Assembly: GCF_056712565.1 (NCBI RefSeq)
Contig: NZ_CM160072.1
Strand: one strand, 5' to 3'
Length of the DNA stretch: 64,000 nt
Position 1 is the stretch's first letter; every line of letters begins with the position of its first letter. Positions 18,501 through 21,500 of this stretch are shown piece by piece. Made by a program: the position numbers.

Positions 18501-21500
18501 GGGAATAGATTAAATGGTGTTCTGTTTATACAGGTTTATTTGTAGATCAACAATTTGGCATTTCTAAACAGATGTTTGAACGTTGCCAAATGTCTTGACA
18601 ACACAAGAAAAGGGCTTGCTATGCCACGCATTACACGAAATAAGGCTATAAAAACAAAATAAATTTTAAAATTTGCACAAACGAGAGAACTCATTCGACA
18701 AATAATAGATTAATTTTTAGCCAACAATTTCTGATGGTGCTCTGTAAGCCGCATTACACAAGGATTTGCGAAAGTGATGTAAAAGTGAAGAAAGTAAGAA
18801 TTGAACTTTTAAGCTACTTTTTCATTGAATTTTTAGTATGGAATTACACAGGAATAAGTTAGGGATATTCTATGATTTACACAGGGAATATAGGGGGATT
18901 ATGGCACACACATAGAAAGACATTACACAGAGTGCTATGTGACAAATGGATGTAACGAGAGGTTACATTCAGCTATCTGAAATGCTCTCTGTAAGAAAGT
19001 TGGTAGTAACGATATGTTACATAGACTAATTATTGAATGTAACGATATTACACATCGGAAGATGATTGAATGTAACGGTAGCTCACAGTGAACTAGGGGT
19101 AGGTCATAGTGAACTACCCCCACAGAATTCTGTTACCCCTATCAAGTCTGATACCCCTACCCCTATCAAAACTAATACCCGATAAGAATAAATAACACCT
19201 AGGAAATGATTTCCGATCTATTTAGGAAGTAACCTAGGAAGTGGTTTCCTACCTACTTAGGAAATGAGTTCCTACCTACCTAGGAAATGAGTTCCACCAA
19301 TACTATAATTAAATACTATAATTAAATAATATAAATAATATTCTTTATACTATATAGGTCATAGTGAGCTAGGGGGTAGGTCACTGTGAGCTACCCCCAC
19401 AGAATTCTGTTAATCTTAACTTTTAAAGAGATTTTTACCCTAACAAAATTCTGTTACCCCACCCTAACAGAATTCTGTTAGACACCCCCACAGAAAACTG
19501 TTAGACACCCCCACAGAATTCTGTTACCTATTAGATCATTTATTAAATTACTTATTAAATTATAATATTATATATTTATTTATATGATCTTTTGCCTTCC
19601 GGCGTTAGCTTCACTCTCTGGCAAGCAGCCTTACTCCGCTACCTTTGGGCTTCGTGGCTGGCCCGTTCCGCTCACACCGAAAGCAAAGCGTTACTTTCTT
19701 CGTGTAACTATCGTTGGCGGTAACGCCCACGAAGAAATACTATTGCGCTGTGCGCAGAAGAGTAATCACCTAACCAATCATACTGATTGCTTATGTGTTA
19801 ACTCTATCTCTCTACCTCGTAATTACCCTCCTACACTTAATAACTCTCGTTATTCTCTGTAGTTGTGTAATTACTCGAAGAGAGAGCGGCTAAAGCTCAA
19901 TTACACTCTGCTTTCCTCGTGTAATTTCACTAAGCCTCAATACAATTCCACTTCCTACATTCTGTAGTCGTGTAATTGTTTTCGGTGGAAAAGCCAGAGG
20001 CGACACCGAAAGAGAATTCTGATCTTATTAATCTTATCTATCTTAGTTATCTTACTTACTTATCTTACTTACTTTATCTACTTTATTATTAATAATAGCT
20101 TTATAAGCTCTCTGTAGCTCTCTGACGCAAGAAACAGCATTCAGGAAGGGAATCACCTTAGAAAAGTGTTCTTTGCGTCATAATGTGTTTTATGAAGGAT
20201 TCAGAGGTGTTTCATAACAGGAGTGTATAGAGGATACTTTAATTAATTAAAAATAAGGGGTCTAAATGCTTCTCTAACAGCATTAAGCAGGGTAGGGAAT
20301 GGAAACGCATTGTCTACATATATAAACTCACTACAGGGCTTTACAGAGCGTTTTATAAAGTGACTCTCTATCTTATATCTACCATCACCTTTTCATATAC
20401 CTAACAAATACAAAATAAGCCCCTTAAATAAGCCTCTGGCGAGCTAAACAGCCATTAGATAAGGCAATGTATTGCTTTTATCAAAATCTCGTTAGAACGC
20501 GTTTTAGAGCGTTTTAGCGGATAATGAAGAATAGCACTACACAGAAGAGCACGAATTGCTAAGAAAAAATGTAAGTGCATGAAAAAGATCAGATTTTTTA
20601 TGAAAAGGTATTGACAAATGTTTCTTTATATGTAATAATAGGTATTAGAGGGACAGAAAACATTCTTCTCTAAATAATCAAAATCAATGCACTTTGAAGC
20701 CGTCAGGCTTGCAAGGTGTTTTATTTCTTTTAACTGAATAAGGAGTTTTTTATGAAATGGTTTACACCGGAACACGTCGTCCAGGCATTTAAAAAAGGTG
20801 AGCTTACACGCCACCAAGTAGTAATGAACCGTAATATGGCAAGGAGTCGAGGTTATCCAGAGCGTGAAAAATGTTTTGACGATGCACTGAAAATTATTGA
20901 TGAACTGCGTAAGAAAGAAGCAGAGAAAGAATAATAGACAAGAGGAGGAGAAAACTATGAGCGAAACTAAGAAACCAATTCCGCGCACTTACCTACACGT
21001 TGACCCTGAAATCTTCAAGGTTTTATTTGCTGAAGCCAAGAAAAGGCAAATTATGGTCAGTGATTTGATGTTAGAAATCATTACTGAAGCAGCAGAGAAC
21101 ATCAAACAAAAAAAGGGTAAGTGATCCTCATTCACTTTAGTAGCGCATTAAGCGTGATTTATAAGGAGATTTTTAATGATTAATGAAGAACAATTTGTAA
21201 AAGTTCCTATGTGGATTCTAAAAATAAGCCAAGTAAACGGGCATAAATTTACAGATAGTGCTAAAAACCTTTACTGCTATCTGAAAGGGTTTGATCGTGC
21301 ATTTCCCTCTTACGCTAAGATAGGCGATGTTTTTGGCATAACACCAAGAGCAGCAGAGGAAAGGGTTAAGAAATTGCTCGAAATGGGGTTAATTATAAAA
21401 GATGCACGACCAGGAAGTTCTAATGTCTATCAAGTGGTAGATATTCCACAAGAAGAAGCTAGACAAGAAGCCAAAACACAACAAGAAGCTACCGTTAAAG

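Follow-up and report, generated by a model that had tools for sequence, protein, structure and literature searches.

What does a gene-free, hairpin-rich block of DNA do beside the presumed replication origin of a capsid-encoding genomic island? The question is raised by a 64,000-nt stretch of Escherichia coli chromosome (contig NZ_CM160072.1, assembly GCF_056712565.1; hereafter the window), in which an island of about 12.7 kb is inserted at tRNA-Thr(CGT) (16538–16613) and carries, in its gene-free region, the segment that we call the block (Table 1). A preliminary description of this DNA had proposed that the block functions as RNA or single-stranded DNA, for instance as an immunity RNA, a primosome assembly site or a packaging site. 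The comparative analysis presented here partly supports that interpretation: the block is a real, conserved, non-coding hairpin array beside the origin unwinding region, and we tentatively read it as a site at which island DNA synthesis is primed or loaded.

A conserved hairpin array beside the candidate unwinding element

The GC content of 0.505 in 19600–19799 contrasts with 0.29–0.33 (about 0.30) on both flanks. Folding of the block with RNA parameters gave z-scores, relative to shuffled sequences, of -5.84 for the plus strand and -8.26 for the minus strand, and DNA parameters gave -6.72 and -10.62, respectively. No shuffle equalled the block in any of these four runs, and the next 431 nt (20016–20446, non-coding), folded as a control with RNA parameters on the minus strand, yielded +0.27. 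These values bear out the description of the block as GC-richer and hairpin-dense. The predicted fold comprises six local hairpins (H1–H6) within a domain closed by the long-range pairs 19616–19622/19993–19999 and 19675–19682/19980–19987. All four stems named in the preliminary description are present, with offsets of at most 2 nt: the 10-bp stem of H1 around GGCG-GTAA-CGCC (GGCG at 19716–19719, CGCC at 19724–19727), exactly as described; GCGC-TGT-GCGC at 19745–19755; CAATCA/TGATTG at 19775–19780/19784–19789, 1–2 nt from the position first given; and CGGTG/CACCG at 19983–19987/20004–20008.

The view that the block contains no convincing open reading frame (ORF) also held. A 92-aa ORF (19584–19862, plus strand) is not a gene, because close homologues carry frameshifts: in copies 95–98% identical, its frame is broken by +1 at 19648 (8 of 12 copies), by +1 at 19757 and by -4 at about 19804. 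This ORF matched no PHROG family and is unannotated in the records listed among the 437 genomes mentioned below.

Of 5426 complete E. coli genomes, 437 contain the block of the window, denoted type A; it is confined to their chromosomes, and the median copy number is one, the maximum three. A dispersed repeat of the MITE or REP kind was rejected on the basis of these copy numbers and because every locus examined lies within the island family. Other E. coli islands of the same family carry, in the same place, a type B block (352 of the 5426 genomes); together, types A and B occur in at most about 15% of the genomes, the overlap of the two sets being unchecked. Type B does not align to type A by blastn, shares with it the motifs CCGCTCACAMCGAA and TGCGCTGTGCGCAGAA, folds equally well (z -5.5 and -6.1) and contains a 24-bp near-perfect long-range inverted repeat. 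Islands of other genera and of metagenomes exhibit the same architecture, with a GC-rich hairpin block of 350–500 nt after an AT/GATC-rich stretch. The placement is constant: all variants examined, which come from six genera and include both E. coli types, have the block in one orientation, its start lying within a few nucleotides of the AT/GATC-rich stretch next to the iterons. Scanning metagenomes for the motifs contributed a further 59 loci, and the block set comprises 65 distinct sequences, 30 of them non-redundant at 95.5%. A loose motif scan of viral contigs returned mostly random matches, with 3 of 110 new loci passing the motif filter.

Across these variants, several motifs are conserved in sequence, namely CCGCTCAC, the GCGC-TGT-GCGC hairpin, GGCTAARG...CACTAAGCC, TAATAAC...GTTATT and GCCAGAGG, and between them the helices persist and their sequences change. 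The outer stem of H1 appears as CUUCGUG/CACGAAG, GUGCC/GGCAC, UUGUGCAA/UUGCACAA or CGUGC/GCACG, and its nested apical helix varies as well (inner stems CUCG/CGAG and CCG/CGG). The inner stem of H5 reads AAUUACAC/GUGUAAUU, ACUUGCAC/GUGUAAGU, ACCGU/ACGGU or ACUGG/CCAGU, the outer stem homologous to that of H4 is CTCTACCT/AGGTAGAG in Enterobacter, and the long hairpin homologous to H6 occurs with two quite different stem sets; some type A copies carry an extra apical hairpin inserted in H6. H2 is found as GCGCCGTGTGCGC in Citrobacter and Cronobacter islands.

A formal covariation count was carried out on 21 pairs of two helices in 29 distinct sequences, the long P-b hairpin being left out. Standard pairs were formed in 92.4% of cells, compared with 27–42% when the partners were slid; five pairs changed on both sides, compared with 0–3 for slid partners; and 23 cells changed on both sides, a number reached by none of 500 shuffles. 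The covariation score was 0.138, against 0.083 ± 0.008 in shuffles (reached by 0 of 500) and 0.02–0.04 for slid partners. Since the structure was derived from the same, related sequences, these figures are supportive rather than proof. The helices kept through compensatory changes across genera agree with the earlier suggestion that the block functions through its hairpins at the single-strand level.

Whole hairpin units have also been gained and lost through recombination between repeated motifs. In Escherichia sp. E1V33 (L007, about 4690–4706), a 105-nt deletion that removes H5 and part of H6 falls exactly between direct repeats TCTGTAGTYGTGTAATT (window 19856–19872 and 19961–19977), and in type B a cassette is present or absent, with losses between its two GCGCTGTGCGC hairpins. 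Such gain and loss of cassettes fits a redundant array rather than one compact fold. The importance first attached to the GNRA-type tetraloop of H1 has to be given up, because the homologous apical loop is UUUCA, UGAAA or UUC elsewhere, even on opposite strands.

The near-invariant motif at the right end of the block reads CCTCTGGC on the minus strand, on the 5' side of the hairpins, and its partner in the fold is 19616–19622. This combination of hairpins and CCTCTGGC on the minus strand is seen in type A and its relatives, and the arrangement of motifs differs in type B. The overlapping sequence GCCAGAGGC (19993–20001) recurs inverted as gcctctggc at 20432–20440, 430 bp rightward in the regulatory region, and this copy is present in type B islands too. 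The two copies could be a shared protein site.

Proposed role at the origin and its rivals

The minus strand is, with moderate confidence, the strand favoured by the structure. With RNA parameters it was the more structured strand relative to shuffles in 9 of 10 variants (mean z about -4.5, compared with -2.7), and DNA parameters gave the same preference. Two internal positions of H5 also point this way: 21 and 15 of the 29 sequences, respectively, have a G.U (G.T) pair there when the minus strand is read, where the plus strand would have an A.C mismatch. Wobbles favouring the plus strand amounted to only four cells among the curated helices.

We tentatively propose that the block is a cis-acting accessory element of an iteron-type origin that works as folded single-stranded DNA, that is, a priming or loading site resembling single-strand initiation (ssi) signals. 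Rep bound to the iterons would open the adjacent AT-rich region, and the helicase would travel rightward. The minus strand of the block would then turn single-stranded as the leading-strand template of the rightward fork and snap into an array of six or seven hairpins, which would keep the single-stranded DNA-binding protein off defined sites and present the conserved loops and motifs (CCGCTCAC, the GCGC-TGT-GCGC hairpin, and CCTCTGGC with its CTG triplet). A primase, primosome or helicase loader, from the host or a helper phage, would bind the hairpins, and DNA synthesis would begin at a defined place. We infer both that the single strand is DNA and that its activity is priming or loading.

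This role is favoured because the block lies beside the presumed unwinding element, in fixed orientation, with hairpins kept over sequence, and because the favoured strand is the template of a rightward leading strand, transcription signals are lacking and the block is exchanged together with the replicon cassette. CTG is the start triplet of DnaG, and its placement within CCTCTGGC, 5' of the minus-strand hairpins, is suggestive. Signals of the ssi type sit near plasmid origins, as do the G-site of R1, the primosome assembly (pas) sites of ColE1 and the ssi of F, R6K and R100; in R1, the leading strand is started by primase at the G-site, which lies about 400 bp downstream of oriR. Of the options in the preliminary description, the primosome site fits the anatomy best, given the AT-rich adjacency, the fixed orientation and the strand asymmetry, although the assignment is still conjectural and blastn revealed no similar plasmid or phage record. 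If this reading is correct, the block would provide satellite-type islands that use a lambda-O-like initiator with their first signal of this kind and would mark where, and on which strand, island DNA synthesis starts. Almost no copies of the block are annotated and those tested against Rfam match no family, and the 65 distinct sequences, of several diverged types, are enough for a proper covariation study and for the design of mutants.

Several points weigh against such a role. The block spans 430–500 nt, compared with about 60–150 nt for known ssi signals, and no sequence similarity to any plasmid or phage record searched was found: blastn (65–70% sensitivity) against 50,697 phage and 72,556 plasmid records, extended to E ≤ 10 for the phages, returned chance matches of 20–24 nt only, and hence no similarity to whatever ssi signals those records hold. 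No homology to the G4 oric-type ssi was detected, the presence of G4 or R1/R100 among the searched records being unchecked. We know of no lambda-O-type origin that needs an ssi. Furthermore, the several sequence-conserved motifs point to a specific binding protein, in type B the CTG-containing motif occupies the opposite end of the block, and we infer the rightward direction of replication rather than observe it. The strand bias vanishes when pairs are pooled (G.U in 131 of 1703 versus 148 of 1797 pairs; 12 versus 12 positions in the alifold union); given no clear pooled asymmetry, the strand assignment draws on the curated helices and the z-scores, hence its moderate strength. We keep the probability of the ssi-like role at about 0.4 on account of the block's exceptional size, its conserved motifs and its failure to match known ssi signals. 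Two further resemblances were examined. The DnaA box TTATCCACA of ABC-type ssi signals was absent when the sequence was read, the closest match, CGCTCACAC, agreeing at 4–5 of 9 positions, and a similarity of CGTGTAACTA to Tus/Ter sites was rejected, as it amounts to 9 of 12 matches and is not conserved in other variants.

The pattern of inheritance counts on the same side. In 31 E. coli loci, whether the block is of type A or type B agrees without exception with the late/capsid module and not with Rep, and among 16 islands block similarity correlated with the capsid (Mantel r 0.54, p 0.0003) and not with the Rep N-terminus (r 0.07, p 0.27). Iterons and the Rep N-terminus correlated with each other (r 0.56, p 0.0003); both flank the block and have thus been swapped around it. 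We read the correlation with the capsid as shared backbone ancestry combined with fast swapping of Rep and iterons, but a connection with packaging or with the helper phage would account for it as well.

A possible reason for such rapid, targeted exchange lies in a phage protein. Residues 1–118 of Rep (21176–21529), its iteron-binding N-terminal domain, share 83% identity with the N-terminal part of a 328-aa protein encoded by Mt1B1_P17, a 151-kb lytic Phapecoctavirus (MT496970, 20722–21708; L220, 1501–2487), and also match phage BI-EHEC and, more weakly, phages 'muut' and 'inny'. The Mt1B1_P17 protein contains two HTH_36 (winged helix-turn-helix, wHTH) domains and a C-terminal MUG113 (GIY-YIG-type) domain of borderline score. 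This is the architecture of Odn of phage ICP1, an origin-directed anti-satellite nuclease that targets PLE origins and is fused to a copy of the satellite's origin-binding domain (PMC8263062). Its domains make the Mt1B1_P17 protein a candidate nuclease directed against the island and hint that large virulent myoviruses and the island family interact, a clue to the identity of the helper phages. By analogy with PLE and ICP1 (PMC8263062), an origin arms race may drive the exchange of Rep N-termini and iterons, in which case the capsid correlation might reflect no more than the backbone lineage.

Exchange of the block itself is seen in Enterobacter, where islands L037 (2637–4556) and L035 (2560–4556) share a capsid module 99% identical and the replication cassette has been replaced. 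The replaced unit consists of iterons, block, promoter, small ORFs and Rep, the new Rep (308 aa) being unrelated, and the incoming cassette brings an unrelated hairpin-dense non-coding stretch of its own (about 410 nt; DNA z -6.5 and -5.3). A sequence similar to this stretch lies to the left of the iterons in a Cronobacter island (L045, about 2040–2110).

Among the rival explanations, a structured non-coding RNA (ncRNA) of about 400–450 nt is a possible, if unlikely, one. Transcribed from the minus strand, it would run leftward toward the origin as a primer or origin-activating RNA comparable to RNA II of ColE1, or as a regulator; from the plus strand, it would be a long leader of the island operon, such as an antitermination element. 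The size of the block is typical of large bacterial ncRNAs, and its strong folding z-scores, compensatory changes, minus-strand G.U pairs and conserved unpaired motifs would all suit an RNA. The transcription signals point the other way. A promoter and terminator scan of five variants (the window, Enterobacter, Citrobacter, Klebsiella and E. coli type B) revealed no conserved σ70 promoter into the block on either strand and no conserved terminators bounding it; the sole conserved σ70-like promoter lies downstream of the block, on the plus strand, and is directed away from it. The minus strand, which the wobble pairs support, has no upstream gene or promoter, and no minus-strand gene lies between the block and the integrase on its right; the plus strand, which could be read from the AT-rich region, has A.C mismatches within helices. 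The switching of apical loop sequences between strands and the appearance and disappearance of entire hairpins also argue against an RNA.

Nor did the databases supply an RNA family. At the gathering threshold, Rfam found in the window only tRNA, IS009 and naRNA4, all outside the block; at E ≤ 10, the region 18900–20700 gave only chance microRNA and small nucleolar RNA matches, and eight other variants gave nothing. Rfam covers the C4-type immunity RNAs of P4 and P1, RNAI, 6S RNA, group I and II introns, and ROOL and GOLLD RNAs. With neither an Rfam match nor conserved signals bounding the block, the P4-type immunity RNA considered in the preliminary description is not sustained. ARAGORN detected no tRNA-like or tmRNA-like fold in the block, and on its negative result a tRNA-like reading of GGTTCGACC in the Enterobacter, Klebsiella and Dryocola variants was rejected.

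A broader proposal, which we regard as unlikely, is that the block represents a new class of large structured nucleic-acid element specific to undescribed capsid-encoding satellites of Enterobacteriaceae. As a ncRNA of about 430 nt or a hairpin array read by helper-phage proteins, it would be partnered with a helper-specific module (capsid, packaging or helper replisome) and would serve as a handle for hijacking a large virulent phage, Phapecoctavirus or rV5-like. Such a partner would explain why the block co-evolves with the capsid gene and not with Rep. Were the block an RNA or a handle for helper recognition, it would be a new structured element central to satellite–phage conflict, for which a PLE/ICP1-like signature is present here in the candidate phage nuclease with the satellite's own origin-binding domain.

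A packaging signal of the pac or cos kind is improbable. In such a signal, the YCGTGYAAT motifs and hairpins would be bound by a small-terminase-like protein of the helper or the island, which would load island DNA into capsids. The block does follow the capsid module, as described above, TCGTGTAAT occurs five times at about 50-bp spacing in type A, with GTGCAAT in the other types, and the island needs a packaging site somewhere and encodes several small proteins of no known function. Against this, the block matched none of the phage records even at E ≤ 10, which leaves the helper-type cos or pac site proposed earlier without a counterpart among them; no terminase gene was recognized in the island; in L037 the block was exchanged with the replicon cassette and the capsid module was unchanged; and the fixed position by the AT-rich region would go unexplained. 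To our knowledge, conserved hairpins are not a requirement of pac and cos sites in double-stranded DNA phages. The lambda cosN sequence GGGCGGCGACCT, already reported missing in the preliminary description, is indeed absent, only GGCGAC being shared (19999–20004).

Least probable is a duplex protein-binding array or cruciform (operator- or partition-like sites, nucleoid-protein sites, or a segment inverted by the neighbouring small recombinase through a long-range inverted repeat), for although the pure Watson–Crick pairing of most helices on both strands, a GU fraction lower than in shuffles on either strand, the inverted repeat of type B, the serine invertase-like gene nearby and the conserved near-palindrome H2 would suit it, stems of 20–30 bp with internal loops and wholly changed helix sequences are unlike what a shared duplex-binding protein preserves, and an inverton was rejected because all copies compared with their flanks (12 type A loci and 78 pattern-extracted copies) have one orientation and many islands have no serine recombinase or a small tyrosine recombinase instead.

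Layout of the island and its relatives

The island extends over about 16614–29300 of the window. Its gene-free region consists, from left to right, of a conserved left module, the iterons, the AT-rich stretch, the block, the CTTA-type repeats and a regulatory stretch, and is followed by a plus-strand operon and the tyrosine integrase. The operon encodes two small proteins, the wHTH initiator, several proteins of unknown function, the capsid protein, a 609-aa protein with a tape-measure-like PHROG match and a Dit-like tail protein. Genes for a portal, a protease or a terminase were not recognized in the island. A profile search of the genome contigs with Rep identified one locus only. The first operon protein (60 aa, 20752–20934) gave a weak NCBIfam match to the 'RNA-binding regulator' NF058537 (E 0.006; 17 bits, cutoff 100), which was dismissed as noise, since homologues failed to reproduce it except for a weaker match in L002 (E 0.075). 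Outside the island, the Rfam matches are an IS009 small RNA at 37796–37996 (194 bits) and naRNA4 at 837–913 and 1578–1655.

The stacked iterons are the presumed Rep binding sites of the origin, and the AT-rich stretch is a candidate DNA-unwinding element. Each iteron family occurs singly in a related island (the TGTAACG type in L003, CCTAGGAAATGAGTTCC in L004 and ACAGAATTCTGTTA in L002), and their stacking could enable the island to accept a new Rep allele.

Table 1. Coordinates of the block, its components and other features (window positions unless a locus is named)
Feature	Position	Strand	Remarks
Hairpin-dense, GC-richer block, type A	19585–20015	minus folds better	z-scores, helix list, 437 E. 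coli genomes
Conserved motif CCGCTCACACCGAA	19668–19681		common to types A and B and most other variants
H1, nested hairpin	19695–19737		10-bp outer stem TTTCTTCGTG (19695–19704)/CACGAAGAAA (19728–19737); GTAA loop
H2	19744–19756		TGCGC-TGT-GCGCA; near-palindrome, near-invariant in all variants
H3	19759–19805		AGAGT/ACTCT around CAATCA-TAC-TGATTG
H4, long imperfect hairpin	19807–19885		TCTCTCT/AGAGAGA, GTAATTAC/GTAATTAC, CTACA/TGTAG; apical AATAAC-TCTC-GTTATT
H5, 'module X'	19888–19936	minus (G.U wobbles)	GGCT/AGCC and AATTACAC/GTGTAATT; best covariation support
H6	19942–19979		ACAATT/AATTGT and CTACA/TGTAG; longer in other variants
Near-invariant motif GCCAGAGG	19993–20000	minus-strand reading CCTCTGGC	contains CTG; in 29 of 30 non-redundant variants
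Three stacked iteron families	18947–19530		TGTAACG type, CCTAGGAAATGAGTTCC, ACAGAATTCTGTTA
AT-rich stretch	19530–19584		between last iteron and block; GC 0.29
CTTA-type tandem repeats	20022–20083		right of block; not conserved in other genera
σ70-like promoter	20611–20639	plus	TTGACA-17-AATAAT; reads into island operon, away from block
Rep initiator	21176–21829	plus	variable N-terminal wHTH domain, conserved C-terminal domain, lambda O-like PHROG matches
Gene-free region	18360–20750		2.4 kb
Small serine recombinase	17820–18359	minus	invertase/resolvase-like; 1.2 kb left of block
Lambda-E-type major capsid protein	23929–24957	plus	in the operon
Tyrosine integrase	27919–29253	minus	
Small recombinases in other islands	L033 3021–3599; L035 1166–1726; L038 1–585		

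The island looks like a member of an undescribed satellite-type family, and the literature yielded nothing specific on this family or on satellite ncRNAs. Relatives were found, through capsid homologues, in Citrobacter, Enterobacter, Klebsiella, Dryocola, Cronobacter and metagenomes and, more distantly, in Serratia. In E. coli GPEC548, the 471-nt block query and the 2391-nt non-coding region, which were the stretches compared, are identical. Two truncated remnants, in E. coli P15-25 (L005) and ATCC 8739 (L006), retain the recombinase, the non-coding region with the block, and Rep; both adjoin a GmrSD restriction gene, the ATCC 8739 remnant lies by thiM and that of P15-25 is cut by an IS3 element.

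The gene for the small recombinase, to the left of the non-coding region, differs between islands: some encode a serine resolvase/invertase, others a tyrosine recombinase of about 190 aa, and some have none. This variation looks like non-orthologous replacement, consistent with a role in multimer resolution. In Klebsiella islands, a gene for a Dam-family methylase lies immediately to the left of the origin region (L038, 1394–2083; L039; L040); together with the GATC-rich character of the AT stretch in variants outside E. coli, this gene may place the origin under methylation control.

Comparison with known systems

The closest parallels to the ssi-like role are the G-site of R1/R100 and other G4-type ssi signals. 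These too are clusters of hairpins in non-coding DNA, located a few hundred bp downstream of an origin of the Rep/iteron type, and they act in one orientation on the leading-strand template after unwinding, as proposed for the block. Beside their hairpins stands a CTG start triplet, to which CCTCTGGC 5' of the minus-strand hairpins may correspond. The block differs in showing no sequence similarity to these elements, in having roughly three times their size and six or seven hairpins where they have about three, and in carrying the CTG motif at a differing end in type B.

Primosome assembly sites of the phiX174 type (PriA n') near the ColE1/pBR322 origin and the RNA-polymerase-type complementary-strand origins (M13 ori(-), F Frpo and the sso of rolling-circle plasmids) are orientation-dependent imperfect hairpins that lie beside origins and are active only as single-stranded DNA. 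Families of primosome-site and RNA-polymerase-type origins share little sequence with one another, a feature that resembles the block. These elements measure 70–330 nt and form one or two long hairpins, whereas the block has short motifs conserved across genera; a promoter-like -35/-10 pair within a stem was not identified in the block.

RNA II and RNA I of ColE1 also occupy an ORF-free, origin-proximal segment of about 500 nt with stem-loops on both strands. That system has no Rep or iterons and has defined promoters for both RNAs, in contrast to the block, which has no origin-ward promoter and no Rfam match. The cos sites of lambda and P4 illustrate the kind of cis site that a satellite needs for packaging, as the block might be; the block differs from them in having no cosN-like sequence and no phage similarity, and the conservation of hairpins is not a feature of cos.

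At the level of the whole element, the island resembles the PLE of Vibrio cholerae, a satellite with a large non-coding iteron region and an initiator with an exchangeable N-terminal DNA-binding domain. PLE differs from the present island in its initiator family and gene content, and we know of no hairpin block beside the PLE origin, a point not checked in detail. What the two systems appear to share is an opposing lytic phage that bears a copy of the initiator domain on a nuclease: Odn in ICP1 (PMC8263062) and, as a candidate, the Phapecoctavirus protein described here.

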